Origin: Rhynchobatus australiae
Taxonomy: Eukaryota
NCBI GenBank assembly: GCA_034780895.1
Contig: JAUZTB010000069.1
Span: 9,857,567-9,921,566, forward strand
Length of the DNA stretch: 64,000 bases
Reading direction: 5' to 3'
Below are positions 5,846-49,700 of the stretch, piece by piece. A program made the translations under genes and the position numbers. The notes under the pieces were generated by a model that made no database searches, had not been told where the DNA came from, and saw only the letters and a program-made list of their open reading frames with translations. Each line of letters opens with the position of its first letter. The first letter of the stretch is position 1.

Positions 5846-6071
5846 AACTGAAACATGTTNNNNNNNNNNNNNNNNNNNNNNNNNNNNNNNNNNNNNNNNN
5901 NNNNNNNNNNNNNNNNNNNNNNNNNNNNNNNNNNNNNNNNNNNNNNNNNNNNNNNNNNNGAAACATGTTGTGGAAATGGTGCAGTTAGAAAATGATGAAC
6001 TCTTGGGAGTGAAACAGCAGCATGAAAAGAAAATCATGGAACTGGAGAGGACACAAGCTGTGCTGCGGGAG
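5846..6071 (+). CDS. CNTRL: Centriolin coding exon E (split by an artefactual 100-N gap)
   Basis: tag|AA CTG AAA CAT GTT [N100] G AAA CAT GTT GTG...CGG GAG|gtgtgt; collapsing the 10-bp overlap gives ELKHVVEMVQLENDELLGVKQQHEKKIMELERTQAVLRE, collinear with human. Confidence 0.88.
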
Positions 6072-8333: not shown

Positions 8334-9978
8334 ATAAGAACATAAGAAATAGCAGGAGGAGGCCATCTGCCCCGTCGAGCCTGATCCACCATTCAATAAG
8401 ATCTTGGCAGATCTGGCCGTTGTCTCAGCTCCACCTACCTGCCTTTGCCCCATAATCCTTAATTCCCCTACTATGCAATAATCTTTCTGTGTCTTAAGTG
8501 TATTTAATGAGGTAGCCTCTACTGCTTTCGTGGGCAGAGAATACCACAGATTCACTACTCTCTAGGAAAAGCAATTTCTCCTCATCTTTGTCCTAAATCT
8601 ATTTCCCCAAATCTTGAGGCTATGTCTGCTAGTTCTAGTCTCATCTACCAGTGGAAACAACTTTCCTGCCTCTGTCTTATCTATCCCTTTCATAATTTTG
8701 TATGTTTCTATAAGATCCCCTCTCATTCTTCTGAATTCCAGCGAGTATAGTCCCAGGTGACTCGATCTCTCCTCATGGGCTAACCCCTCATCTCTGGAAT
8801 CAACCTGTGAACCTCCTCTGTACTGCCTCCAAAGCTAGTATATCTTAAGTAAGGAGACCAGAACTGCACATAGTACTCCAGGTGCGGCCTCACTCGTACA
8901 CTGTACAGTTGCAGCATAACCTCCCTGCTCTTANNNNNNNNNNNNNNNNNNNNNNNNNNNNNNNNNNNNNNNNNNNNNNNNNNNNNNNNNNNNNNNNNNN
9001 NNNNNNNNNNNNNNNNNNNNNNNNNNNNNNNNNNNNNNNNNNNNNNNNNNNNNNNNNNNNNNNNNNNNNNNNNNNNNNNNNNNNNNNNNNNNNNNNNNNN
9101 NNNNNNNNNNNNNNNNNNNNNNNNNNNNNNNNNNNNNNNNNNNNNNNNNNNNNNNNNNNNNNNNNNNNNNNNNNNNNNNNNNNNNNNNNNNNNNNNNNNN
9201 NNNNNNNNNNNNNNNNNNNNNNNNNNNNNNNNNNNNNNNNNNNNNNNNNNNNNNNNNNNNNNNNNNNNNNNNNNNNNNNNNNNNNNNNNNNNNNNNNNNN
9301 NNNNNNNNNNNNNNNNNNNNNNNNNNNNNNNNNNNNNNNNNNNNNNNNNNNNNNNNNNNNNNNNNNNNNNNNNNNNNNNNNNNNNNNNNNNNNNNNNNNN
9401 NNNNNNNNNNNNNNNNNNNNNNNNNNNNNNNNNNNNNNNNNNNNNNNNNNNNNNNNNNNNNNNNNNNNNNNNNNNNNNNNNNNNNNNNNNNNNNNNNNNN
9501 NNNNNNNNNNNNNNNNNNNNNNNNNNNNNNNNNNNNNNNNNNNNNNNNNNNNNNNNNNNNNNNNNNNNNNNNNNNNNNNNNNNNNNNNNNNNNNNNNNNN
9601 NNNNNNNNNNNNNNNNNNNNNNNNNNNNNNNNNNNNNNNNNNNNNNNNNNNNNNNNNNNNNNNNNNNNNNNNNNNNNNNNNNNNNNNNNNNNNNNNNNNN
9701 NNNNNNNNNNNNNNNNNNNNNNNNNNNNNNNNNNNNNNNNNNNNNNNNNNNNNNNNNNNNNNNNNNNNNNNNNNNNNNNNNNNNNNNNNNNNNNNNNNNN
9801 AATTTTGGTAAATTATCACAAACGCCTCTACTATAACTTCCACCATTTCTTTCAGCACCCTGGGATGCATCCCATCAGGACCAGAGGACTTGCCTACCTT
9901 TAGGCCCATTAGTTTGCTCATCACTACCTCTTTAGTGACAGTGATTGTGTTGAGGTCTTCACCAACCATAGCATCCAT
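8334..9978 (-). mobile_element. 5'-truncated CR1 LINE (ORF2 remnant; gap 8934-9800)
   Basis: ORF remnant KSSGPDGMHPRVLKEM, NLWYSLP-type C-terminus, TTCTTATG-repeat 3' tail at about 8335. Confidence 0.88.
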
Positions 9979-10019
9979 AATGTGTTTTAAGTTTTGATTT
10001 ATTTTTGTGTTTATTTCAG

Positions 10020-10177
10020 AGCTGTTGAAGTCACTGAAGACAATAATAGAAATGCTCGCTCTAAACTACAGAAACTACAAACAGAGATGAATGAGCTGAA
10101 TCAGGAAGTAAATCAAATTAAGATCCAGAAGCAAGAGTTAAATAAGCAGATAGCATATACACAAAACTGTCTACAAG
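10020..10177 (+). CDS. CNTRL: Centriolin coding exon G
   Basis: cag|A GCT GTT...CAA G|gtataa; coiled-coil AVEVTEDNNRNARSKLQKLQ...; phases match both neighbouring exons. Confidence 0.9.
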
Positions 10178-15241: not shown

Positions 15242-15513
15242 GTAAGTTGCAGTCACATTATAAAAAAAAGTACCATCCATTTCATCAGTTCAAGTACATA
15301 AACTTTGGTCAGACTCTCTGAAAATATTACTGTTCGTTCGTTACTTTGTCTTTTCATGTAATGATAGACACACAAAAAAAGAACATTCACTGAAGGTATA
15401 AAAGAGAAACTTTTTAAAATGTGCTTATAATGCAGAAATCTACAAGGCCCAGATTTCCTATACAGAATCTCGAAAATCTGATACAAGTTCTGATGTTGTT
15501 GTTTTCAACATAG

Positions 15514-15654
15514 GAACAAAAGTATGAAAATAACAGACTGCAGGAGGAATTATCTTCAAAAGACCAGGCTGCACGTGATAACCATGCCCGAGCTGAAAGT
15601 GTCATGAATGAATTAAGTGAGATGAGACAGAAATATTTTGAACTTAAACAACAG
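15514..15654 (+). CDS. CNTRL: Centriolin coding exon L
   Basis: tag|GAA CAA...CAA CAG|gtacat; EQKYEN...ARDNHARAESVMNEL, similar to human EQKQEN...AQDNHERARRLMKEL. Confidence 0.93.
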
Positions 15655-16101
15655 GTACATGATAAAACCTCACTAATTTTCTCATTTCGTGAAACTAAAT
15701 AAATATGTTCTTTACATGAATTGCTGGTGTCAGTATTTGGGTATTTATTTCTCTCATAATTATTCAATTATTCTGATGTTTGATTAAAATATGTTGTTAT
15801 TTTTTATAGTGTTATGAGGTAGGTTCAGATAATAAATAGAACATAGACTATGTTTATAACATAATCTGGATCTCTGAATGATTATTATTGCACAATAGTC
15901 TGCTGGTATTGAATTGTTTATAACCTAGAATTTTATAATGGAGCAAGAGAATGAATGTATAAATAAAAAATCGGGATAAAAAGCAAATTATATATTTAAT
16001 AATAATTTATGACTAAAACAAATGACTGGTCTGGCTTTGTTTATTCATGAAGTTTTGATTTATCATCTACTTCTCTCATTGATACTTAATCAATCCTTTA
16101 G

Positions 16102-16377
16102 CTGAGAAGTCAAGAACAAATGTAGCAACGCCAGAAAGAGATAAAGGAAGCCATAAGAATACTTCGGTCAGATGTCAAAGCAGAAATCGGCAGTAGTTTG
16201 AAAGATTTAGATCAATCTTGTGTGGAACCAAAGAATGATCTGGATGTTACTTTAGAAGAGGCAGAAACTCTTCAACATGAAAAGGAAAGTCTGAAGGAGA
16301 ATTTTCCCTTTGCTGCCAGTGAGAGAAGACAGCCAACTTACAATGAGAGGTTAAGGCTGACTAAATTCAATTTTAAG
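16102..16377 (+). CDS. CNTRL: Centriolin coding exon M (in-frame TAG at 16123-16125)
   Basis: tag|CTG AGA AGT CAA GAA CAA ATG TAG CAA CGC...TTT AAG|gtgcta; downstream ESLKENFPF is similar to human ESLKENLPF. Confidence 0.88.
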
Positions 16378-17279
16378 GTGCTATTCCTTTGATGCTTTTT
16401 TTTTTATTTTACAATTCATTATCTCCATTTTTATAATGCAGTCGAACTTGGCATCACACATGCCTAAAAAAGAGATCTGACAGTGGCTTCACTGGTGGAA
16501 GACGTACTTCCTTGGTGTGTTCTGAGCACACGTGATTTTGAAAATGTGCATAAGGAACAAAAAGGTGGATCCTTTGGCAATTTATGACAATTTGCTTCTT
16601 TATGCTTTTTTCAAAAGACTTTGACAAAGCTGGAAATTTAAATGTCATGACTTTTTTAAAGACAAATCCAGCATTTAAATTTCTTAACAACAGCTGTGGA
16701 CAAAGATGTGAACAGAAGAGCTATAATGATGACTTCTTTGACTATTAGGAAATTAAAAATATTATAGAGATTGGATTCCTGTTGGTTGATTTGGAAAATG
16801 CAGTTAAAATGTCTTTTCAATTGAACTTGTGAATTATGGAATTTGTTTTAATATAGAAAAGTCCTAAAGCATNNNNNNNNNNNNNNNNNNNNNNNNNNNN
16901 NNNNNNNNNCCTATGTCATAAAATCCATTAATATTGCACTGGATTTTCTGCTTTTATGCTCTGGTACTTGAGTGCAAAACACTTGCTTGCATATGAAATT
17001 GGGAACCACTTTTAATAGTAGAAATATTAATGGGAGTGATGGGGTTAGGGAAGCAGAATTTGAGAGAGTACCTGTGGGCACAGAAGTGCTTGTGCAGAGG
17101 TTAATTATCAAAGTACACTAGTCTTTTAACACCATAAAATGGCTGTCACAGATAACACGTGTAATGAGTTACTGAATTATTGAGATAAAGCACCCCAGTT
17201 TAAAAAAAATGCTTCTGCATAAAGGAAAAGAAGAAAGATGGAAAAAGGCAAATTAACCATAACTGCAGTTAAAGCTCTT

Positions 17280-17720
17280 AAGAACATGAAAGAACATAGA
17301 ACAGTACAGCACGAACAGGCCCTTGGGCCTGTGATGTCTGTGTCAACCATGATGCCAACTTCAACTAATCCCATCTGCCTGCACATTGTCAATATCCCTC
17401 CATTCTCCATCTGTTCACATGCCTGTCTAATGCCTCTTAAATGTTGCAGTGAAATAGAAGCAGGAGAAAGCCATATGGCCCCATATGCTTATTCCACCAT
17501 TTAATAAAATTATGGCTGATCTTTTACCTCACTGACATTTTACTTTAATGATGCCATATCCTTTAAATGTATTCAGTGACTGAGGCTCCACAATGCTTCA
17601 CTTTCTGAGTGAATTTCTCCTGAATAACCAACTCCTTATTTTAACACAGTGATCTTTGATTCTTCACATCCAAGCAAGAGGAAACATTAACTTGATCTAC
17701 CCTGTCAAGGTCCTTAAGAA
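17280..17720 (-). mobile_element. Two adjacent CR1 3' end fragments
   Basis: gaacatagaacagtacagcacgaacaggccc and aatagaagcaggag...aattatggctgatc tails. Confidence 0.65.
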
Positions 17721-17845
17721 TTTTGTTTAATGGCTTTTCTCAAGCCATTATGGAATTGCTGGAATTTGGTCAACTTCCTATATTGTTCATATAAGCATCC
17801 AGCAAGGAACAAGTGTTAAAGGAACATTATTCTTTCCTTATCCAG

Positions 17846-17908
17846 GATGAGCAGTGGCGAGGAGAGGTGCTAAGAGAAAACCTACGGCAACAGGAAGATC
17901 GGCTAAAG
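17846..17908 (+). CDS. CNTRL: Centriolin coding exon N
   Basis: cag|GAT GAG CAG TGG...CTA AAG|gttggt; DEQWRGEVLRENLRQQEDRLK, similar to human DEHWRGEALREKLRHREDRLK. Confidence 0.95.
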
Positions 17909-18065: not shown

Positions 18066-18254
18066 GCACAGATTCGTCAGTGCATGTCAGAACAAGCTGA
18101 AGCACTCTGTAAGCAAAAGCAGCAGACAGAGGGTAATCTGACAAGCCTGAGAAGACGAGTGGATGTTCTGGACGAACTTGTTACTAGCATGAGTGTAAAC
18201 TCATCTCAGCATTACCAGACTGATGGCCCAAATAAGGCAAGTAGCAAACTGTAG
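18066..18254 (+). CDS. CNTRL: Centriolin coding exon O (ends at TAG 18252-18254, or at a GC donor after 18236)
   Basis: tag|GCA CAG ATT CGT CAG TGC ATG; AQIRQCMSEQAEAL...QTEGNLTSLRRRVDVLDELVTS, similar to human AQLRHCMSKQAEVL...QTEGTLHSLRRQVDALGELVTS. Confidence 0.9.
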   Translation, partial: AQIRQCMSEQAEALCKQKQQTEGNLTSLRRRVDVLDELVTSMSVNSSQHYQTDGPNKASSKL

Positions 18255-19259: not shown

Positions 19260-20090
19260 TAGTGCCCATCCCTGGTTACCCTGAGAAAGTGTTGAGTCCT
19301 GCAATAATTTTAGGAACTTAAGAATTTAAATCAAGCAGCAATGGAAATATGATTGAACAATCCCATTTCAAGATGTTATTTGAAGGCGATGATATTAGGA
19401 CATTGCTGCTCTTGCCCTTCGGAGTGGTGGAGTCTACAGGAGCTGCCAGTGAAGTTAAAGCAACTTTAAGTTGTTCGAGTGCATCCTGCATAAATACTGC
19501 AGCTAAATTGTCCTGATTATGAAGGTGCTAGGAACTGACTTAAGTAAAAGGAGCATAAATCAGGTGTCCTCTTTTCTCCTTGATGTTATTGTAGCTACAT
19601 TTGTCCAGATAGTTGGTGAGAGTTCCATCACACTGCTGATGAGTTATGCAGAGCCCACCACTGGCTGCTTCATTATCAGAAAAATTCAGAATGGAGCTAA
19701 ATACTCTTGAATCTATAGCAAATGACCTCATTCCTTTAATTATGATGGAAGAAAGTTTGTTGATGAAATGGTCGAATATAGTTGGGCCCAGGACACCTCC
19801 CTGAAGAATTCCCGGAGTGTTGCCTTGTGTTGATTTAGGGGTATGCTCATATATAAAATTATAACCCAACCTCAGTATAGCCAACCCAGGCACAAATATT
19901 TTTTTTCTATAACTAGCTTGACAAGCACAGTAAGCATAACATTCTGAAACATGCTTTTGATCCATATTGATGAGACTGCAACAAATGCCATGATCTTTTA
20001 TATCAGCCAATGGAGAGAAATCCCTCTTGGACCTTTTTGAGTTCAGTTTTCCCCTCTCTTTTGATGTTATTTCTACATCAAAGTCTTGTT
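19260..20090 (-). mobile_element. Degenerate LINE reverse transcriptase fragment (CR1/L2 group)
   Basis: Translated GILQGGVLGPTIFDHFINKL...FAID resembles RT GVPQGSVLGP...FINDL...FADD. Confidence 0.75.
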
Positions 20091-20789
20091 GAAGATGCCT
20101 TTTAAGTAAAAGTTTACAAGGCATTACATCATCAACCCATTTTGTTCCTCATCTTCTTTGTTTAATTTCTTAAACTTGTTAGCTACTACATATCATTTTT
20201 GACCACTTCCTTTGACTCCAGTTTTTGTTTTGTATCTGGAACCTTTTTCTTTCCAGCTTTGCTCTTTCATGTTGTTGGTCTTTTAAACTTTTGAGTAATT
20301 GTGTAGTTTTTCATGTGCACCATTTTATAGATTCCCTTTGTTTCTATACCATCATCATAAGACATTGTAATACCTAACTAAAGCATGGGATGTGGAAGTA
20401 ACAAATATTCGTTTTACAAAAGAGTTGCATTAATTAGTTTGTGTTATAAACAATAAAATCATTATTTGTTATGACCACCTTATTTGTAATTTCCCTTTTC
20501 ATCTTTGAATCCCTCTATTCACACTTCCATTCCTTCAGTAGTACCAAAAAGGTTCTTGGTGATCTCACAAATGGTGTTGTATATAACCATGGTAAGCTAT
20601 GACAAAGAAGGGGGGCATTCAGCCGATCACTGGCTGACTGTCAGACAATCCCATTCCTCCACTTATTTCTCTGTAACCTATTCCCTCACACATGCCTGTT
20701 AACACCCTTGTCCCCTGGATTCTCCCACCAATCAATAGGGGTGATTTACAACAACCAATTAACCTAAGAGCCTGCACATCCTTGGGATC

Positions 20790-21836: not shown

Positions 21837-21936
21837 ACTCTGCTGCAGGGAATATTCCAGTCACCTTCCAGAAGACCAGCTGAAAGATCTGTACAAGCAA
21901 AGCATTCCCGTTTGCTTGTTACTGAACAAGATTCAG
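21837..21936 (+). CDS. CNTRL: Candidate additional CNTRL C-terminal exon
   Basis: ttctttcag|ACT CTG...TCA G|gtaaac; open in phase 0 after the GC donor (TLLQGIFQSPSRRPAERSVQAKHSRLLVTEQDS); no recognised homology. Confidence 0.45.
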
Positions 21937-24699
21937 GTAAACAAGAGCTCAAGTAATGTACTTTTTTAATACCCAATTTTCCAGTTGCCTTTCTAGACAA
22001 TGTTTGGCCCACAATTAAAGAAGATTCTTCAAAAGTGANNNNNNNNNNNNNNNNNNNNNNNNNNNNNNNNNNNNNNNNNNNNNNNNNNNNNNNNNNNNNN
22101 NNNNNNNNNNNNNNNNNNNNNNNNNNNNNNNNNNNNGTAGATACAACTGTACCCCAGATTTTTATTAAAAAGCCATTATTTGGACCCAGAACTGAGCTTT
22201 TTGCTCTGTGACTGTACAGATGTTCGGGACTCCCATGCAAGCTTGTGCAAAGGTGGATGTCCCTAATTTCTGTGGAGTTGACTGCCACTGTCACCCACCT
22301 TCATGCTGACATTGAACATTACTGTGGAGCGCAAACGTTTGTTGTTTCTCAGCATTCAGTTTGGAGAGTCTAACAGTTGAACAGGTTCAGTTACTCCATT
22401 ATTTTCCATGGAGAGGTTCTACTGTACAAAAAATGAGTAAATTACAGATAATTTAGATTTTTAAATTGAATTAACTACCCTTTTCTGGTGTAATAAGTGC
22501 TTTAACTTATAGTTATTTAATTCTTAATAGTGCTTTTATTTTCCTATGTGCAAGCATTGATAGCTTTGACGGTTGGTAATGTTGGTGGCTCAACTGACCC
22601 TCAAAACATATCAGTGCGATTGATAATTGGCAAAGCTCTGTGCTGCTCAGAAGAGGGGAGTGAGACCTGATGGGCTGAATGGCCTCCTATGTCATTGTTA
22701 TAATTGTAAAGCAGGAAGCAGTACCCTTGTACAGTGCTTTAAAGGCTTTTTGTTACATTAGTTGCATGTTCAAAGTAAGATAGCAGGGTAACATTGGCAG
22801 ACAGAAATTTTAGTAAATATTTGGAGGATCTCAGATTTCTGGTAGAGTCATCAGCCTTGAATAAAGTCCATCACACTGTTCAATGAACATTTTCAGCTTT
22901 AAAGTCAACACAATTTTTATTACATAATTTTAGCAAAATTAATGTTTGTGCTTTCTTATCATGAATTCTATGAATATACAAACAACTCCCTTGCTGTGGA
23001 GGGGTTGGGTTCCTAGTAAACAGTCTGTATCGTGATTTTCTATAGCACAAACCCCTTTTTACCATTAAATCCCATGTTATAAGCGGAGATGTATTCCTCT
23101 GGGATGTTTTTCTCTTACGTTAAGCCATTTTATCGGCAATAACGAAGTGACCCACTGTTGTTATTTAACATCTGAGGCTAACAATAGACTCGATGAAAAA
23201 GGCAGGTGCAGTAGAAACAACATGTCTTGTCAATTTGTATTTTTAGTCACTTAGTACTGTGGAGCAGTAAGGTTTGGATATGACGTTAACGCATTGATTC
23301 AGTTGGCAGTCACAGTCGATGTGTGAACAGACGTTACAGAGTGAAGCGCTGCCACGCTCCTTATCTGCAAGACTCTTGGATTAGGAAAGGGTTTAGAAAG
23401 TAGGGAAATCAGGGAAAGGGGTGGGATTCAAGGATCAGGGTTCATGGGAGAAAAGTGGTGCAGAATGAGTTCAGGGGTGTAATGGGTTAAAGCACGGTGA
23501 CTTAGTGGCAGTGGAGTAAAGGGATTACTTTTAAGGAACTGGCCAGAGAAAATGGCTCGCACTCTGAGGTTTCTGTTGAATTGTCCTTGGACTGGAGAAG
23601 TTGTGGCAAAGTAAGGACTCAGTTGTGACTGTCAACCCTATCGATGCAGTGACATCATNNNNNNNNNNNNNNNNNNNNNNNNNNNNNNNNNNNNNNNNNN
23701 NNNNNNNNNNNNNNNNNNNNNNNNNNNNNNNNNNNNNNNNNNNNNNNNNNNNNNNNNNCATCATATCCAAATCTTGTTGCCCCAGAGCAGAGTAACTATG
23801 AGTAATATTTTGACATTTGTTGTTTCTTTCACATTTTGTTTATTCATTTTATCCCCACACAAATGCCATAAGGGTGAATTTTATTCCCAATCTCAAATTT
23901 TTGGGTAATGATTTGTGAATTCTGTAAGGGCAAATTTCCATTACCCAAATGACCATGACACAGGGGTCACTTGGAACAATGTATGAAATAGAATTGGAAT
24001 GGTTTAACATTTCAGTGCAAAAATACAATTGAGGTGCTTAATATATTGGCCAAGCTTGATGCAGCTTGTCAATGTGCAGGATTCTAAGTCTCTTACCTGG
24101 AATTGGTCACTGTCAGCACATTCAATAACTGACAATTTGCGTAGCTTCTTGTAACTGTAGTAGATGTGACGAAACCAATTCCGGGAAGATGTTTCAATCC
24201 AGTAATGATCAAGGCAATGTATTCAGTAGAAAATACAACATTAATAATAGATCTGAAGACTAGCAATTATAAACATTAGCACCAAATAGCACTAATCAAT
24301 ATTAGAGAAGGCACTTTTGACTAGTACCCTACTTTTAAATTGAAATTTTGACTACAAGTTTCAGAGCAGTTTATTCAAATTTTTTATTTGGTGTATTTTA
24401 GGAATACATTTTACTATGATTAAGGCGTAAAAGCAAAATATGTAATCAACACCAAATTATTTTATGTCTCCTGTCTTCTATGACTGGTAAGAAAAATGTT
24501 TGCATTTCAGTACTTCAGTACTACAAATTTAAAAGAAAACTAACAATTGCTTCTGTGGTATTGAAGGAACCACAGCATGTACTGAACACATTGCTCATTC
24601 ACAGTCCACTTTTCCACTGCGCCACAGTTTGTTCTTCACTTGCTTTTTTTTGAGTCACGTCTTAGATCTCTACAGAGGTCGCCTAAACATTCTGGTGGG

Positions 24700-36662: not shown

Positions 36663-36840
36663 CTAGCAGCCACAGCCTTCTCTCTGGGGCTGGGGCTCAC
36701 TGATTAGTCGACCACCTTGTGGAGCGGATGGTTTGTGCTGTACTCCGGACTCAGCAGCGTTGAGATCCAGGCTGCCATCCTGAATATTTTGGTAGATTTT
36801 CTTGGCTGCCTCCAGGAATGCATCCTCAACATTCTCACCT
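36663..36840 (-). CDS. RAB14: RAB14 last coding exon with CxC prenylation motif
   Basis: tag|A GGT GAG AAT...GGC TGT GGC TGC TAG; exon lengths sum to 648 nt (215 aa plus stop). Confidence 0.98.
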
Positions 36841-37225
36841 CTAGGAACAAAGTAACAGTCACTTATTTACTGTAGCAAAGTGGCCAGGCTAAAAACATTT
36901 CTTCCCCCGCAAACCCCCCCCCCACAAGGGGAAACAAATCCACACACTTGCATCTTACACCCAGTTCTCAAAGCATCACCAACCAGAGTCACACATTGGG
37001 GAGTTTTGGGGGCAGGTGGCTGTTTGCTGATTTTACAAAACCAACCCAAATACTGCAAGTGCTGCCAAGAAAAATCCACCCCCAATGTGGGAACATTCTG
37101 ATGTTAAATCCCCTGTTCTGTACAAAATAGAAAAGGATTTTATTAATGTCATGCAGCTTTTGAAAAGACCACCACTATATTAGTCCAAGATTTTTCAAGT
37201 GACTGAAGCCAAGCTGCACACTTAC

Positions 37226-37256
37226 GTTTTTGCACTTGCTTCAAGGAATAACAGAC
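37226..37256 (-). CDS. RAB14: RAB14 coding exon 6 (31 bp, G5 EASAK)
   Basis: cag|GT CTG TTA TTC CTT GAA GCA AGT GCA AAA AC|gtaagt. Confidence 0.96.
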
Positions 37257-38534
37257 CTGTAGAAAAATTTTAAAAACTTAGTGGCAGAAATACTCATGTT
37301 ATAAAGTTGAACTTAAACTTACCCCTAACCACAAAACAATTGAAACATACCCAAGATCACGATAATTAAACTATAAGCTACATTATTTGAAACTACTGAT
37401 CCCATGTGTAACTGTAAGGAACTTTACTCTTAGGCAAGAAGTTACCATACAAGACAACTCATTAGTGAAGAATCCAATCAACAGATGATTTGGAATACAG
37501 AATGCTGGAGATTTGGACTGATTTTAATCTGTGCTACCATTTCCAGCAAAAGAGAATGCAACAACATTCTACCTTCTAACCACATTACAAAATGTAAACG
37601 AGCAGTAATGTGGTGGTCTTGCTCTCCTCACCCACCATACAACTGCAAATGGATCAATTTAGTATGGTTGATACAAACCAAATAGCACACAAAAATCAGT
37701 ACATCACACAAATCCAAGTTAAATTCAAAATTTCAGCCATAGTTTAATACCAAAATCTACACAGGAGAGCGCACACCCAGGAAGGGCACAACAGATGTGA
37801 ATAAGTGTCAAGTAGTCAAAGTCAAAAGACTGATGGCAAGGAATTTTTAAAATGCCAATGTTTAAGAGGAAGTGATAAAATGTGTAAGAAATGTTGGTCA
37901 AGTATCAAATGCAGCCCTGGATGTCTCATTTGGTAACAGGATTCTACAACATATCAGCTAAATCTTGGTCAATCTTTGCTGTAACTATTGCAATGGAGAG
38001 ACTTGAGATACTAGGACTGTTGCCAATGGAACAGACAAGGCCAAGAGGAGGATTCAACTGAATTTTGAAATTATGCAAAAACACATTTAAGAGTCCAACT
38101 TCCTCTGGTTTGAAATCAATAAGGGTTCTTCAAAAGCCAGTGAAAAGAAATGTGCATCTTTCTGAGCAAGGACTATTAGAAGCAAGGAAAGGCTTAGGGA
38201 GACCAATGCATTCGTTTCCACACAAAAAAAAGATAAATGTTTAAAGTAAAGATTTAAGATCAGTTTTGAAATTACTCCAATAAGGAGCTGCCAAATACAA
38301 CTAGCTAGTCTTTCACAGTAGAATTAAAACTGTCACTAAACATCCTCTGGCTTGATAAAGTGGAAAATTTTAATAAGAGACTCATCCTAAGCATTTACTC
38401 CTCACCATCCATAATGCACGATCTGAGTTTAATTACAACCAGATCTTGGATAAGTAATGCTATGCTGCAGAATGGCATTAATCCAAACTTTTAATGCACA
38501 TACTGGAATCTCTTGCTGAGCAAGGATCTACAAT

Positions 38535-38745
38535 GATAGACAAAGAACACTACAGCAAGTACAGGCCCTTTGGCCCACGATGTTGTGCCGACATTTTCTC
38601 CTGCTCTATGATCTATCCAACCCTTCCCTCCCACATAGCCCTCCATTTTTCTATCATTCATGTGGCTATTTAAGTCTCTTAAGTGTCCCTAATGTATCTG
38701 CCCCCACAACCTCTGCCAGCACTAAAAAAGACTTGCCTCTGACCC
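38535..38745 (-). mobile_element. CR1 3' end fragment
   Basis: gaacactacagcaagtacaggccctttggcccacgatgttgtgccgac tail. Confidence 0.7.
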
Positions 38746-39264
38746 TGGTCTCAGCAGATTGTTCAATTTCTACAGCCAACTTCCAAAATCACTTCTTGAA
38801 CATTTGTTTATTTTAGTGCCCAAAGGATAAATTTGTTCTAACATGAGAGTCAGTTAGAAGCCCAATATCAATTCTTGGCAACTTTGACTATATCACCATA
38901 ACTCCAGCAGTATTTAAAATCTTCATTTGGGCTGGTGGTGAGGTTTGAGGAGTGTGGGGATTAGAGCTAAAACAGAATCATAAATCTGGATCACTTGGAT
39001 CTCCTTCCACTCTGGCCAACACTGTGTTTAGTGGTTGTCCTCTGATAGAGAGGAAACAGCGTGAGAAAATTGTTGCAAGACTCATCAGTTCAGATAATAA
39101 ACACCTTTGATACCAAAAAACAATGAAAGTTACATTTTCCAGATCTCTCCTTTAGATGACATTAAGGAATTATGCAACAATTTAGTTTAATCTTCCTTGC
39201 CCAGAAAACTTGTTTCTGAATAGAGGACAGCCCTACAAAACTCAACCCACAGAAGGAAATGTAC

Positions 39265-39352
39265 CATTTTCTTCAGCAAATTGCTTGGCCTCTTCATACG
39301 TTACATCTCGTTGAGCTTCAAGATCAGCCTTATTTCCTCTAAGAATAATCAC
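39265..39352 (-). CDS. RAB14: RAB14 coding exon 5 (G4 NKAD)
   Basis: cag|GTG ATT ATT CTT AGA GGA AAT AAG GCT GAT...AAT G|gtacat; [29 protein letters not shown]. Confidence 0.97.
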
Positions 39353-41097
39353 CTGTGAACAGAAATCAAAGTAAATATGGGAGAAATAAAAATCTAAATC
39401 AAAAAACAGCAAATGCTGCAAATATTCAGGTCAGGCCACATCCATGGGAAGACAAACAGTTAACGTTGACACCATTTCTCTTCCGACAGACAGTCTGACC
39501 TGCTGAGTATTTCCAACATTTTCTGTTTTAAATATTGCAGATTGCTTATCCTGTCAGATCATCAGCAGGCAGGGAAGTTAGTTTTCAGGCTTAAAACAAA
39601 TGTGCCCCTACTGCAAACCAAAGGCTTGTTTGACAACAACCAAGCTTCATACAGGTAACTTTAAACAGTTGCACTAATTGCAGTTTGTTAGAAAAAGCTA
39701 GACTGTAGCTGAACTGCAAAAAAATTCAGACAAGTACATAATGACAATCTATTTCTGGTGAAAAGAACAACAATCTGAATTCATATGCATTTCCCATTTT
39801 CATTGACAATAGCCCTGTCAATGCTGACCCTATGACTTTGTGCCTTTGATAAAAAACATCACTATTGACCAAACTCATTTGCTTTGAGACCCATTAAAAA
39901 AATTAAACAACTCAACTTAATCAATATGGATGTCTTACACATAAATCACATTTAATCACAATGTCTGACTGCCCAAAATGTGACATTAGAATTCAGTGAG
40001 CTCAATCGGATTCTCAACTGGAGCCATTTTGAAGGCTCACGTGACTGCCTGAAGGGGCTGAAGGCTACCTGGCAATTCCAGATTTCTGCACCGGTCCAAT
40101 TCAGTCAGTGCTCAAGGTCAGATGCAAGCACATCTCACCCCTTGGTTGCAAGTCCAGTGGTGAAACAAGTACAAGGGTATTCCATAGCTCATTTCTTATT
40201 TGGCCCCTCAGCTTTACACCAGCCATAGCTGGCTAATCTTCAAGTTTAATTCACCTGTGTTGCTGACCTACATTAGAGTGACTTTTTTTAAAATTTTAAT
40301 TACCTGACAAATTATTTTCTAACTAATAATTTTTTAGATTTTTTTCACCATTTCCAAATACCTGATTATTCATTGGTTAGACCTTTGCTTCTGCCTTGTG
40401 GGTTGGAGGCCACCTTGCCGCAGGGATGACAGCCAGTGTGACCACAAGGAACGAGCAGACTCACCCTTTTCAGGCTGCCAAATATAGTAGCCTTGAGCTG
40501 CTTTTGGGTTCTTCTTAAATTCAGATTCCAGGAGCCAATACCCAATACTCCATTTTTCCAGCCAGTGATGGACTTGAGATTGTCCACAAATTTGATTTTT
40601 TTAAATTAAAGCATAACATTGGAAGCAGATTCCTGAAAATGTGCATTTAAATACAAAAAGATTTTTGGATTACTCAGCAGTTTCACTCCAAGGCAAACTC
40701 AAGATTTGTATAATGAGAATCATTTGAGTTTGTCATTAAGACACGTGAAATTGCTGTCCCCACTGCATGCGTAGCACACTACTCGTCTCATTATCTGATG
40801 GAGATCCTTATCTCTTAACCAGAGATACAAGTCAAATAAGTGATCAGTTTTAGACTGGATGAAGTCATCCCTTTTGACATTCGTCTTTCCAGATCTGCAG
40901 ACGTGAGCAAAACCCCCTCCAGCACCTCCCATCCAAGTTCTAGGACACATTCTTGCTAAATTAGCTAATCAGCCTGGAGTCAGTAGAAGTGACACTTAAA
41001 TGGTGCAGGTTTCAAAGAATTACCCCAGAAAACACGTACAGAGTTGCAGTGAAGTAATGCAAAACTGAGTCATTGCTTCTACAAACCATTCACTTAC

Positions 41098-41164
41098 AGT
41101 ATGTGGATTGGTCAAGTTTCTTGCATCTGTAAGCCAGCTACTAAGGTGGTTGTAAGTACTTCGC
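41098..41164 (-). CDS. RAB14: RAB14 coding exon 4
   Basis: tag|G CGA AGT...CAT ACT|gtaagt; [22 protein letters not shown]. Confidence 0.97.
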
Positions 41165-41741
41165 CTAGGGAAAAACAATTCCCACAAATTTATTCAAATT
41201 CATCATTCAAGGGTATATTTTAAATGCAGCTGTAGAGAAAATACAAATCTAAAATTACTACAAGGCTTGTGACTAAACAGTGACACACAATGGTGCACTT
41301 AGAATTTTGTAGTTGTAAACCACACAAACAGGAAATAGTGAAGGTTACCAGTCACAATTTGCCTTGCATGCAGTACATCCTGAAGTACAAAAGGTCTTAA
41401 TCCAAAATATTGCCTACATTAGAGTTCTACTTATTTATAATCGTACTGCCATTGTCCTCAATTTGTAAACAGGTTCTTAAAATGCATGCACTTGCCACCT
41501 AGTCAGCTGATGCAAGGCAACATTACAAAAGATTCTACTACCTCTTAAAAATCAAACCATCCAAGATTACTACTCATAAGTCAAAAATTGTGACTTAAGA
41601 ATTCAAGTCGAAAGGATTGAGCTTGGATGTGAAGTCAGCCCATCAGCTAACACTATCACCAAGACTTTCAAATGAAGAGTGCCAATTTTGCTGATGCAAA
41701 AGAGGTCTCAATTTCAGCAGCTGAATTTCAGATGTACATTA

Positions 41742-41948
<207 letters not shown>

Positions 41949-43229
41949 TTACAAGCAACATGCCTTAACATTATTGGAGCAACTCCATTTTAAGCATTTA
42001 CACAAAATTACAACTTATTTACAGACCACACAGCACAATCTCAGTTAACCAAGTGCAACGATACAGTCATGCCTTTTTAGTTCTAGCAAGCATTCTGTTG
42101 ATGTGGGAGCACATCTGATATTTTCATAAATGTTCCCCAANNNNNNNNNNNNTATATACAGCAACAAACTGTGGCTGTGGAATTTCTGATAATTGGGCAC
42201 CTCCAAACTAATTCTGCCTCTGAACATCAAATTAAATAAAAGGGCATCCTAGGCGTGCTTTTGACTGAAATTTAAAGTTGCTACTTCTGAACTCAGGCTT
42301 TTGTTGCACATGTATATCACCTGTTTTGCAGAGGGAGAGAGAAAAAAATTGATGCCACAATATTTGTCCCATCATACCCATTGAGGAAAACTCTGCAGAG
42401 TAGGGGAAAATCCACTGCACGATGAAAAATGTTACCATTTGCAACTCTGCCTAGTTGGCCCTTAAATAGCTTTAGATAAGGAATTGGGTAATAAAAAGAA
42501 TGTAGTCGAGCTTATGTTAACTTAGCAGCCAGTCAGAAAGAAATAGAGGAAAAATATCAAGTCTGTGGCAGTGGATTAAATAGAAAGCAGGAAATTCAGA
42601 TCAGTGAAATTTTGAAGAAACTCACTATTCAGAGCCATTTTTTAAGATGCCTTTAAGACTTTGCCAAGTCTTTTTCTTCACACCTCAATGTAGTGTAAAG
42701 AATAATTAACTATGATGCCACCAGGCAACTTGAATACCATACATCTTTCAATGTAGTTAATGTTTAGGCAGGGTGACCTTGTTGCATCCATTGCTCCAAG
42801 GAGAGCCAACCACAGTTGGTATTCTTGGTTTCCCCATTCAAATACTACCCAGGAACAAATCTGTTTAGCTGCCGATATCAGATAGGATCAGTAGTCTTCA
42901 GACTAGTATTGTTAGAAAACAAAAATACCAACTGTTGGTCATCCAGCTCTTCAAGCCTGCTGCAATTAAATGATCATGGACCATCTTCTACCTCNNNNNN
43001 NNNNNNNNNNNNNNNNNNNNNNNNNNNNNNNNNNNNNNNNNNNNNNNNNNNNNNNNNNNNNNNNNNNNNNNNNNNNNNNNNNNNNNNNNNNNNNCATCTT
43101 CTACCTCAGCACCATTTTCCAATATTATCCCCATAAGTCCAATGATATAACAGTTTCTCTTCTCTCCCCCCCCCCTCCACACAAGGTGGAACACTGATAG
43201 AACCACACCCCTCCAAAGTGGTAAGGAAT

Positions 43230-43620
43230 TCTAAAGGTTCACCACTACATACAGAGTAATTTCTCATTGTCCCAAGCAGTCTACCTCTTATGGTCTTGAA
43301 CTCCTCAGTCACAGGAAACATCAAGCCCTTTAAGAACTTTGCAAGCTTCATTGAGATCTCCCCCTGTTCTACTAAACTCTGGAGACTAGATTCTCAATCA
43401 CTCTTCACACAGCAAAATCTGGAATGAGTCTTGTGAATTTTCATTGTACTCCCTCTATGGTAAACATCCTTTCAGGCAAGGAAGGAGACCAGAGCTACAC
43501 AACATGTCATTACTAGTGCCTTATTTAATTGCAATGCATCTTCATTACTCCTCTATTCAAATCATCTTGTAATAAAGGCTAACATAGCATCTACCCTCTT
43601 AATCATTACTGCACCTACAC
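43230..43620 (-). mobile_element. CR1 fragment
   Basis: gagatctccccctgttctactaaactc...ggagaccagagctacacaac. Confidence 0.6.
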
Positions 43621-44490
43621 CAATCATAATCCTACACTTCTACCCATCCATCACTAATTCAGGCCAGCTCCTCAACACAGATCAGTATTACACATCATGT
43701 CATCAGCAATTAGTTGTCAACCACAATTAAATCTGAAATGTGTAAACAGGAAGTTCGAGGACAAGACTAAAAATGTAAAATGATTTATCTTATTTGGTTA
43801 TTTTTTTATATATATACACACACACATATATACTTGGTGACATTAGATGAAAGGGGAAAGAGCATTGCACAAATGTTCAAACCTACTTAACTGGACTATC
43901 ACAATTAACATTCAACTGACAGCAATTGTTAACCAAGAACAAAGATTGTGCACTCAAATTCTGGACCAGCACAAATTCAGCTGCAAGTTGAGCTTGGTGC
44001 CAAGGCAAGTGAACACTTGGCAAAATCAGATTTAAATGGAAACAGTGGGAACCATTTTTCCCAGAACTTCAACTCATTTTTAAAACCAATAGATTTCCAA
44101 TTCAATAGAGATTTTCCAATTCAATTGCTGGAGGCGGGGATTAGGAGGGGCAGGGTGGGAGAGCAGACTCAGCAATTGATTAGTACATGGGATTAACACA
44201 TCCAATTAAACAGCTGCCTTAACAAGTGCCTTCATTACACAAATTGAGAGAACACACCTTTGTGTATTGTGCCACATCAGACACTAAGCAACATAACCAA
44301 TGAGAGGTTTCAATACATGTCCTCGTGGGAGGGGGCAGGGTTACTTCCTTTCATTTTGAAGGCTCATTTTTTAAATTTCACTACACAAGTTGGGACAAAT
44401 GCACTGGACTAAAACAGAGCTCAACTCAGGATCTATAGTTCAGTAATGTTCACAGTCAAGGTTTGAAAGTGGATTTCAATATTTACTTAC

Positions 44491-44544
44491 ATTTCTTTTC
44501 TGTAAATTGATGAAGCAAGCACGACTTCCCTACACCCATGTCTC
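44491..44544 (-). CDS. RAB14: RAB14 coding exon 2 (P-loop GDMGVGKS)
   Basis: tag|GA GAC ATG GGT GTA GGG AAG TCG...AAA T|gtaagt. Confidence 0.97.
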
Positions 44545-46657
44545 CTATTATAAAATAAACTTTCAGGTCAGTCATAAAAGGATTAAAGTCAACACAAATA
44601 AAAAATACCACATTTTGCTATGTCTCTGTATCTTTTGTTTCAAGCCAGAATATCTAATATATTGAAAGAGATGTAGAGCCTCTCAAGTCCCTGTCCTACA
44701 GGCATCATCTTTAATTTCAGTACCGGATGTTTCACACGATGCATTTAAAATTGAAGACGTCATGCATCATTACCACAGAAACAAATGGAGTGCTAAATTT
44801 ACATAGGCTTCCTTTCAAAAAGGAATCCTGTGCCAATCTCTCAATTCCACTGATTACATAGCCACTCTCTTTGCTGGAGTATTATTTGACCACACTTCTG
44901 AATTAAATTAGTTGTTCTTTTATATCTACTAGAGTGGCTTTACACTATTCAATGCAGCTGTAAAATATTCCTTGTTTTTTTAAATATATAAAAGAGGCAC
45001 CCAAAAAGATGGATATTTTAATTGGCAGAGCACAGGATCAAAAGTTTATAAAGGGATCACCACACAATGGAATCACCTTTTCATTTTAAAGGATATCCAA
45101 ATACAACTAACTTTTCCTTAACACTAAAGAAGAAACAATTCCAAAGCCATGATTACATTTAAAATGACTATTGTTCATGTTGTGAATTCATTTTAATCTT
45201 CAGCAAAGCAAAAGTACCAGAATTACGATTCAGAATTTCATTGCTTGGATAAACACAACTCAGTCTGGTTAAACAATATTTTGAAGGCAAGTGATACACA
45301 TTGCCAAATTAATAAGGTCAGCTATCAAGTACATCTCACATAGCTGGCATCCTGAAACATACTTTGCAACAGGTACACAATTCTTGCCTTCCATTACAAA
45401 CTTCCTGAAATTTCTTCTTCACATACAACCTTAAAGTTTACACTCAAATGCCTTGTCATTATCTTCAAATTATTAGTAACACACCACAAAGTGCTTGGAG
45501 GATGTTATAGATTATATATTAAATTCTACCACAGTATTTTAGCAATTTCTATATCCCACACATTTCATACAAAGCCAGACCCTATACCTGCCAATCAACT
45601 TTTGTGCTAGCATGCTGTGCAAAACTTTGGAACATGGAATACACAAAGTAACAAAATAAAATTAAAAATACCAGGATTGCCAGTTACCTTCAAGTAAAAA
45701 CAACTTTACACAAATAACTACATATCACTTGCATTCCCCTCAGAAACCCAAGCCTCAGTTGCTCAGAAACTTTCCATGCAAAATAACTCAAACTGTCATT
45801 ACTTCTAGTACACAACAATACAATGGAAATCTAGAAACCATTCCAGATGATGAACACAAAATTATAACATTAACACACACCAAATATCAGATTTGTACAC
45901 CAAATTCTATCCAAGATATAGAAGTTAACATAAATTATATCTAGAAAAAGAAAAACTTGCCATATTGCAAACCAAAGTGCATTACATTCAATTAAGTTTT
46001 ATCATTTTTGTAGACAGTCCATGCACAATATAACCCCAGAAAAACAAAGAAATAACCAATATGCTAATTTGCTTTAAGGTTATTGTTGGTGAATCAGAAG
46101 ATGGACAATATGGAGGGCTAGATAGAAAAAGTTACCTGATCTTCAATTATTCCAGGGAAACATGTCAAACTCAGACAGGAGTTTAATGGCTCACCTGACA
46201 CATGGAAGTGCAGTAAGTACTCTCTCAGCAGTACACTGGCCCAGTCTGAATTACTGCTTGAGAGCACAACTTTCTAATTAAGACTAAGAGGCAAGAGTCA
46301 TGTCATTTTTGGTAATATTTCTAACATCTATAGTTACAGAAACTTTCACAGACTTCTACTTTAATTTGCTTTCCACTTCAGATTGGAGTGTAGTGTGGTC
46401 AAAGACAAAGCTTGGTGTACTGTGTGTATCAAACAGCAAGAGAATACTTGGAAAGGAGTTGGAAGAGAATAGGAAGTTTGAAAACTGCCAAATGAATCAG
46501 TTATATTCTTAGTTCATTCACTCATATTTACATTGTTCTCAAAAGTTCTTTGAGTACTTTATGAATAGGTTACCTCATTACTACATGCAAGCTATTAAAT
46601 TGCATTGGATCCCATCTCTAGAAATTGAACTTGAAATCCAAAACCAAATGTACTCAC

Positions 46658-46709
46658 CAATTATAATATATTTGAAGATGTAGGAATAGTTGTATGGAGC
46701 AGTGGCCAT
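46658..46709 (-). CDS. RAB14: RAB14 first coding exon (MATAPYNYSYIFKYIII)
   Basis: Acceptor ctag|AGCCAGG ATG (exon starts at 46716); donor G|gtgagt; matches the human N-terminus. Confidence 0.97.
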
Positions 46710-49700
46710 CCTGGCTCTAGAAAAAGGGAAGGACAAAAAGGATGACTATAATAAAAATTCAGATTGTTCTGAATACATTATAGAACATTAATTTATTTAC
46801 TGATGTCCTCTAGTCTTGCAGAGTCATATTTAGAAATTACTGACTATAGTTCAAGTCTGTGGCATCCCTGCAATGGCAGGTAAGCTATTCCAAAATAGTT
46901 TAATGCTGTACCATTTCTGTCCCTCTGCTCAAAAGGGAAAAAGTTTACAATGAAACATTTTGAAAAAAGATTATGGAAAGCTGAAATAGAAACAGAAAAC
47001 ACTACAAATACTGAGATCAGGTAGTATCTGTTCTGCCATAGTCTCAGACACTATAATTTGAACTGTTTCCACAGACACTTCCCAATTTGCTGAGAGTTTA
47101 CTACATTTTCTGATTTGATTTAAGATATTACTTGCTCATCCTGCCTCTTACTCAAAAAGATGGAAGGGTGACAACTTGTCTGCTCAACTCAGAATATCTG
47201 AGTTGTTAGGTGGAAGATGAAATCTGATCCTTATCTTCTACAACAGTGGGCAGTTTCTACAAAGTAGAGGATAAAAAAACTCCTGCTGGTTAACTTCTAC
47301 ATGTGATTTACTTTATGAATAATACATTCTGTGACACTCAAAACATTCACTGTTCTTTTTAACCAAGCAGGAAGCACGTTTGACAAACTATTCCAGTCAA
47401 CACAGGAACAAGACCCTCTCAACCACACACTTCAGCCACATCCAACAAAAACTTTGCATTGCGTTTGTCTGACTACAGACTTTTACTTTTACAATCTTTC
47501 ATCCCCTTGCCACCCAAAAATATAGATTTACCTGTTAAATGTATTAAGCAAAAATTTATGCCACAACTTGTATTAATCGTTTTTGAGTGACAAATCATTA
47601 ACTGAGCAAGAAATAACGAAGATTTTCTTCAGGTGTCCAACTGCATTCAATTTATGTACTTCCAAAAGTACAATTTCATTGAATTCACTATAATCGTTTA
47701 GCAGTCCTTTAACATTTTGTAAAATAGAGCAAGAGATGGTAGAATTTGGAACCCAAGAAATGAGAGCTAGAATATTTGGGGGTGAAATCAGGAAGCACTT
47801 CAAACTCTGCAACAGATCTGGAATCAAAACCCAAGAATGACAAATTTTGGTGAAGGATTACAGAGCAATCCTTACTATGGAGAATTATGGAGCCAAAACA
47901 AAAATCAGGTAACTGAAATATATACAGGTCAGCCACAAATTTCACAATACAAGTATCATGCTCAATGTGCTAAATAACTTGATTCTGTAGTCATTGCAAT
48001 CAATTCTTCGAACTACATTTTCATGAGGCCTAACTAATCTTGTACTGTTTACCAGATTCTTCCTTCACATGGTGTATCAACTATTATCAAAAGGGCTGGT
48101 CATCCTCGAGGAAATTGTGCCTCACACCATAGATAACAGCAGGAATTCTTATTTGACTACAATATGCAGCAGTATCACACCCTCCACTTTAAATATCAGG
48201 AGAAGAACAGTTAAGAAAAACCAGTGGAACAATCAAATCACCATTAGTGTATTGATATCATTGAGCTACATACAAGATTATACTACATTTACTGTTGCTG
48301 TACGTAGCACATTTTTTAAAAAAGGGTTTCAAAGCATGCTGTTTACCCAATAGATACAAGTTGTATTTAACATGGTTAGAAAAGGTGCATAGTATTTTAC
48401 TTGCTCAAGGCCACAATGTAGGTCAAATACAAGAGCTAAGTGGATGGTTTACTGCTATAGTGCACCCTTAGTACTGAGCACAAAAATTTAAGAAAATTAT
48501 TCAATGCTTCACTGAATTGAAGAAAATAGATGCTTGTAGAGCATTTTAGAACCATCTGCAGTTCAACTTAATATAGTGACCCACTTGGCAAAAACCCAAC
48601 TTAAATCTACGTACAAGCATCAAAATGTAAAACAATGGAATGAGAGGGAGAAAACATGAATGTGCAATGACCATTTACTGTTGAAAACATTGAACCAAAG
48701 ATTTTTTGCTGGACCAAAATTTAAAAAAAACACTTATTTTGTGCAATGAGTTCAAAATAGTGTGCATTGTTGTGTATGTAGGCAGCTCCAACTGTCATTT
48801 GGTCTGAAACCATTCCACACATTCTAGTACAAGTAGCAATGAGCACTTTCACAAAAGCTTCCAAACCAATATCAGGAAACACCAAGGGAACCAGTGCTGA
48901 CACCTGTCAAACCTGACATGCTGGATAACCGAGTCTTTAAAAATTGTACTGCTCCGCTTGCGGGTTCTGCCAGTCCAGAACTGTCAATTCTTGCATTGTA
49001 TAAAGCCAAGCATTTATCAGCATGCTAAATATTGCAATTCCCATCTCCACCTCTACCAGACATGGACAAGATAAGCAATACTACACCACTCCACCCCAGT
49101 GATCTCATTCAAATCATATGCTAATATACATTTCCTTTGTCACCAATTCAAAAACTGCTAAGGTTGAAGGTTCATCATAAAAGCCTGCACTGATCACCTG
49201 AAAAACTATTTCATCAAATAGTGTTGCCCAAATAATGTTGCTCTTGGTCCTTCAATAGTAAGATTTTTTCTGCACTCCTATTACACAGCAATTTCACTTA
49301 AACAGCTTTTCTTCCATTACAGAATTGTGCAGCCCTCCTTCTTCCCAGCATCGACTGCAGAAGGCTCTGATCGACTCCATTCTTGAAATCAACATCACTT
49401 ATTAACCAAGTCTACTGGCCTCCACACTCTCCATGGTTCAGGGTCCTCTTACATTGGATTTGTTTAACAGAGGACTTTCAAACATCAACATGTACAAGTG
49501 CAGGTGGAAATTGAACCAATGCACACCCTCTTACAACAAGTATATAAAACTAAAGCATTTGAGCAACTGTAAGATCATCGAGTTGGAAGTGATCAATCAT
49601 ACAAGGGAAGTTTAAGTTAGAAGTGATGAGAGGCATTTATATCCTGTTCCTCACCAGATCCTCATTCAAATACAAGAATAATGCAAAATCTAAGAAGAAT

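Follow-up and report, generated by a model that had tools for sequence, protein, structure and literature searches.

We show that the centriolin gene of this ray, as assembled, carries a single in-frame stop codon, TAG at 16123-16125 (plus strand) of the window, the window being the whole 64-kb stretch of DNA that was analysed. It is the sole internal stop in an otherwise intact gene model of 40 coding exons and 2,233 codons, and all other sources examined have G at 16123. The TAG is a single G-to-T change, and our preferred reading, in which we place about even confidence, is that it is a heterozygous nonsense allele of the animal that was sequenced. As the stop is private to one assembly, it is likely to represent either a heterozygous null of one animal or a base error, and not recoding. 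In addition, we showed that a Gypsy-type element took up this exon from spliced mRNA, with the pol frame kept at both ends, and that the captured fragment spread before several ray taxa split. All degrees of confidence given here are judgements and were not computed.

Results

Direct reading of the sequence agreed with the initial annotation that the TAG lies in frame in a centriolin exon, which reads L-R-S-Q-E-Q-M-stop-Q-R-Q-K-E-I. The exon (16102..16377, plus strand, 276 nt, phase 0-0) is preceded by AG at 16100-16101, and a 447-nt GT-AG intron (15655..16101, plus strand) separates it from the preceding exon (15514..15654, plus strand), whose GT donor at 15654/15655 is in phase 0. Downstream, also on the plus strand, lie the next exon (17846..17908, containing DEQWRGE), with a mean identity of 91% among chondrichthyan proteins, the penultimate exon (18066..18236, containing QTEGNL), with a GC donor, and the last coding exon (21837..21956), which ends in the terminal TAA at 21954-21956. 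Between the TAG and this TAA we counted 201 codons, in line with the earlier estimate of at least 162 open codons. The TAG is codon 2031 of the model and aligns to Glu1590 of the known centriolin (CNTRL/CEP110) of Pristis pectinata (XP_051893173.1, here P0001), residues 1583-1674 of which are 91% identical to the exon. The marmoset and capuchin proteins have MANQKDLERRQMEI at the aligned site, as the initial annotation had given for human. The gene, the frame and the derivation of TAG from GAG had been called correctly.

The gene model was built from the window and 100 kb upstream and begins with the leucine-rich-repeat region and ends at the terminal TAA, with the gene's first exons left out. 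A protein search with the part of the exon downstream of the stop returned centriolin of Pristis pectinata (91%) and of Callorhinchus milii, and a Pfam scan of the same part gave no domain. The leucine-rich-repeat region in the upstream part of the ray gene matches the Callorhinchus protein (P0003). Identity to P0001 is 1522/1589 (95.8%) before the stop and 188/201 (93.5%) after it (p=0.15). A unitary pseudogene is recognised by several lesions or by decay after the stop; here the frame and the donors are intact, with one stop in 2,233 codons. The intact 40-exon frame, the high identity to P0001 and a RAB14-like neighbour argue that this is the orthologous gene and not a decaying pseudogene. 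That neighbour, a small GTPase gene at about 36700-46720 of the window on the minus strand, lies tail to tail with centriolin, an arrangement that we take to be that of the human genome, and those of its exon pieces that were seen are open. We also considered a second intact paralog that could cover for the gene. None was found in the animal's own genome, where the other matches are intronless fragments (search counts being lower bounds).

Several other features of the gene were recorded. Two of the 39 introns of the model have GC donors (window 18237-18238 and L007:4927-4928). A 100-N gap at window 5860-5960 hides the acceptor and the first four coding bases of one centriolin exon. By eye, the minus-strand segments 19540-20148 and 8783-10065 of the window appear to be decayed remnants of non-LTR reverse transcriptases in centriolin introns.

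The T was sought in public DNA in 8 of 19 matching runs, all as assembled contigs, which give no allele counts and drop rare alleles. G was found at 16123 in all 19 covering contigs of these runs (X1, 1; X2, 4; X3, 2; X4, 4; X16, 1; X19, 1; X8, 4; X15, 2). Most of them are copies carried by the retroelement, and five represent the true locus or true mRNA, namely X3 record 17, X8 record 8, X15 record 4, X16 record 6 and X19 record 7. X3 record 17 covers 16006-16164, including 96 intronic bases, and is identical to the window at 158 of 159 letters, the sole difference being at 16123; its depth of 2.78 is under the program's error-warning depth of 5, and its G agrees with all the others. The X8 and X15 records also span into the intron. 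The X16 and X19 records are spliced contigs of 5.8 and 6.2 kb that contain the whole preceding exon, continue into the exon before it and have the 447-nt intron exactly removed. Splicing is thus normal in a relative, with 15654 joined to 16102 and no other joint listed in these two contigs, whose status as RNA is the program's guess and which come from one study.

Apart from the base at 16123, the three cleanest pieces of X3 show no substitution over 359 letters, which puts the divergence at 0.8% at most (95% upper bound); the figure for organism B is 2.4%. G is therefore present in the same species or in a very close relative of it. The organism code of X3 differs from that of X1, so that X3 may be a sibling species and the lesion could still be fixed in this ray. 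Record 22 of X3, whose 68 letters all lie in the exon, may come from a retroelement copy. In X1, the best-matching run, contigs of the true locus are missing between 15917 and about 16100, and this run is silent on the true locus at 16123; nearby, the window equals X1 at 1,409 of 1,410 letters. A second window-only base was noticed in an intron at 15472, where the window has G and X1, X2 and X4 have A. This difference and the one mismatch in 1,410 letters agree with ordinary polymorphism.

At the protein level, Glu occupies the aligned column in 90 and Asp in 13 of the best 120 of 151 proteins. Of the 25 chondrichthyan records among the matches listed, 24 carry Glu at this position (the 25 being 24 by name and one grouped by score, several of the records being isoforms of one species). 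Stop-bearing orthologues are missing from protein databases, and the DNA contigs are therefore the stronger test. Comparison with orthologues, which the initial annotation had suggested, thus gives GAG or Glu in relatives and no use there of an acceptor at 16126.

The initial annotation had proposed that the TAG itself serves as a splice acceptor. The site (16106..16128, plus strand, with the cut before 16126) is indeed an in-frame YAG, the distance from the normal acceptor to the end of the TAG being 24 nt. Its strength does not bear the proposal out: with a small matrix made from 38 other acceptors of centriolin (leave-one-out scores -2.1 to 12.1), this purine-rich site scores -4.2, lower than any of the 38 real ones, and ranks at the 25th percentile among 240 decoy YAGs from exons, and it has 4 pyrimidines in 17 positions compared with 7-15 in real acceptors. 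Three other AG dinucleotides lie between the true acceptor at 16102 and 16126, and use of the site was not seen. The true acceptor is itself weak (score 1.0, with only 2 of the 38 lower). Since 21 of the 40 exons have an in-frame YAG within their first 36 nt, the coincidence is common and not beyond chance. An in-frame CAG at 16132-16134 was also tried as an acceptor and rejected at a score of -3.6.

Leaky readthrough had been proposed as well, and here UAG-CAA does form part of the type I signal UAG-CARYYA, the stop being followed by CAACGC; CAR is matched, the CGC fails YYA, and the context is not found in relatives. CAR follows 46 of 449 codons that are one step from TAG. Both rescues are therefore unsupported: none of the 38 real acceptors scores as low as 16126, and CAACGC departs from CARYYA. 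The open frame downstream had been taken as a sign of selection. For so recent a change it is uninformative: the neutral probability of an open frame is 0.56-0.93 at 0.8-0.1% divergence, and a frame that is open by default at a probability of at least 0.56 for divergence up to 0.8% is no evidence of rescue.

Exon skipping is a route that the initial annotation did not contain. Having 276 nt and phase 0-0, the exon can be skipped in frame, and in a predicted isoform X4 of Hemiscyllium ocellatum (P0095) EYLELKQQ is joined straight to DEQWRG, which skips exactly 16102-16377. To judge from these sequences, skipping of the whole exon would be a better escape route than either the 16126 acceptor or readthrough. 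The equivalent region is shorter by its first 39 residues in isoforms of marmoset and capuchin (P0103, P0104).

A stop triggers nonsense-mediated decay when the last exon junction follows it at a distance of more than 50-55 nt. The TAG is followed by three such junctions, at 252, 315 and 486 nt, so that the T allele should be a target of decay, one of the two outcomes that the initial annotation had anticipated for a premature stop at this position.

Searching the animal's own genome, we found at least five further loci that match the exon edge to edge at 82-93% identity. Five copies (L002:404-757; L004:628-970; L006:1-186 and 436-585; L019:4844-5199; L020:4849-5171) are intronless; in them the whole exon is flanked by at most 28 nt from the exon before it and by 52 nt from the one after it, with both exon junctions joined; L006 starts 10 nt before the first junction. 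Their source spans 15627..17897 of the window (plus strand; 15627-15654, 16102-16377 and 17846-17897), or 354-356 nt when spliced. The flanks of the copies belong to an abundant LTR element, with an aspartyl protease (PF13650) upstream in L020. In copies of the element that are free of the insert, the reverse transcriptase (RVT_1) continues at the 5' switch point and the integrase core (rve) leads into the 3' switch point, and we conclude that the insert replaced nearly all of the stretch from the reverse transcriptase through the integrase core. The order protease, reverse transcriptase, integrase is that of a Gypsy-type element. The pol reading frame is kept at both switch points, where microhomology with the parent element was found by eye (ACAGAAA, 7 nt, at the 5' end; AGGAAG, 6 nt, at the 3' end). 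L020 has a 74-nt direct repeat on both sides (94.6%), which is cut by an N gap, and no target-site duplication could be read. In L006, the captured copy is split by an insertion of 248 nt (L006:187-435) that bears a short target duplication and whose ends recur as loose ends at 16238 in X1, X2 and X3.

The joined form or loose ends occur in contigs of X1, X2, X3, X4, X8 and X15, which represent five organism codes, and the capture therefore predates their split. Summed contig depth in X1 is about 90-116 over the exon compared with 3-6 in its flanks; although depth is not copy number, this suggests that more copies exist than were assembled. Selection on the copies at the protein level is unsupported, as mismatches by codon position are 7/9/9, 4/8/9, 5/9/10, 8/12/7 and 9/6/7 and two copies have stops. 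At the position of 16123 all five copies have G (four GAG and one GGG), which indicates that the copies are not the source of the T and that the change is younger than the capture. Import of the T from a copy by mis-assembly or gene conversion was rejected for the same reason. Exact matches across 16123 extend over 24-30 nt in four copies, none being scored in L020, and in contigs of relatives the match across the site is 50-53 nt long with one difference. It is unproven that words common to the locus and the copies led the assembler to a T path.

Discussion

We propose that a G-to-T change at 16123 in the sequenced animal created a nonsense allele of centriolin, that mRNA of the T allele would be destroyed by nonsense-mediated decay, and that a normal GAG allele would supply the protein. 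A review states that the centrosome function of centriolin needs its 170-residue C-terminal region (PMC8227969), and a list of cilia genes with variants in a human cohort of laterality heart defects includes loss-of-function variants of CNTRL (PMC13559085). These reports suggest that a homozygous null is less likely than a heterozygous one. Against a heterozygous null stands the absence of T from every other source, by which the allele is not demonstrated to be real and which a consensus error fits equally. Since the T is private to one assembly, the fallback of the initial annotation, a consensus error or a heterozygous variant, is the best reading of this stop.

A wrong consensus base in a gappy draft, with the animal GAG/GAG and its gene normal, is a serious competitor that we consider somewhat less probable. 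G-to-T is a typical change of oxidative damage. The T is in none of the 19 contigs, the genome is in 81,522 contigs, the window has 17 N runs, one of them over a centriolin acceptor, and the exon belongs to a repeat family over which public contigs break up. Older assemblies, moreover, needed more corrections of premature stops (PMC8081667). The near-complete match to X1 would nevertheless mean that the local sequence is accurate, with the qualification that the match is not independent if X1 is itself the source sample; also, no retroelement copy has T, so that the base was not imported from one. We regard as unlikely a homozygous stop, or one common in the species, that is tolerated by skipping of the exon, giving a protein 92 residues shorter. 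The phase 0-0 exon, its weak acceptor and the Hemiscyllium isoform would permit this, but that isoform is a prediction and one of 25 chondrichthyan records among the matches listed, X3, within 0.8%, has G, and the exon is conserved (69-83% mean identity in those records). It is also included in the spliced X16 and X19 contigs, although a skip to 17846 would have escaped notice in that stretch. Were such an animal homozygous and living on the skipping isoform, a wild vertebrate could dispense with 92 conserved residues in a protein of the centriole appendage.

Rescue by the new acceptor, joining 15654 to 16126 and removing eight residues with the stop, seems more improbable still. In its favour the site is an in-frame YAG 24 nt past a weak true acceptor; its score, its few pyrimidines and the three intervening AGs speak against it, as do the conservation of the eight residues (83% mean identity) and the fact that no chondrichthyan record among the matches listed lacks only those. 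Relatives have GAG, and their RNA is thus no direct test of this site. We give least credence of all to programmed readthrough that restores the full-length protein. C after a stop makes a leakier context (PMC12817336), and CAA fits CAR, but the high-readthrough motif named in that source for mammalian cells is UGA CUAG and not UAG CAA. Furthermore, conservation would be expected of a programmed site, whereas this one is present in no relative, and CAR is a frequent enough neighbour of potential TAG codons, at 46 of 449. We would favour the heterozygous nonsense allele over any form of recoding.

The stop itself is ordinary, and without reads it should not be read as recoding or as gene loss. 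The captured fragment bears on how such reads are to be used. In a naive pile-up, most reads at 16123 would be G reads derived from the retroelement copies, and the result would falsely pass as proof of an assembly error; a decision is possible only with intron-anchored reads. The fragment also preserves the ancestral codon and the splice junction, and it extends the capture of host mRNA by LTR elements to rays. None of the papers listed by our literature search on this subject mentioned centriolin, and among them we found no report of its capture by a retroelement.

The case can be compared with known systems. Pristis centriolin resembles the ray protein on both sides of the stop and differs in having Glu1590 where the window has TAG. 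Isolated premature stops in drafts (PMC8081667) and private heterozygous loss-of-function alleles are alike in consisting of one lesion in an intact conserved gene that is absent elsewhere; the only difference here is the repeat family overlapping the exon, which complicates a check by reads. The type I readthrough signal of tobamoviruses, given as UAG-CARYYA (PMC5382211), shares UAG followed by CAR with the ray context, which differs in having CGC for YYA, in being unconserved and in having three exon junctions downstream. LTR-mediated retroposition by template switching, in which a partial spliced mRNA replaces internal ORF sequence with a median junction microhomology of 6 bp, was described by Tan et al. 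2016 (PMC5131818). Judged from its sequence, the capture matches this model: a partial spliced mRNA lies in the ORF of an LTR element, the microhomologies are 7 and 6 nt, and the chimera was copied further. What differs from the system as described there is that in the ray both switches keep the pol frame and the copies are common to several ray taxa.
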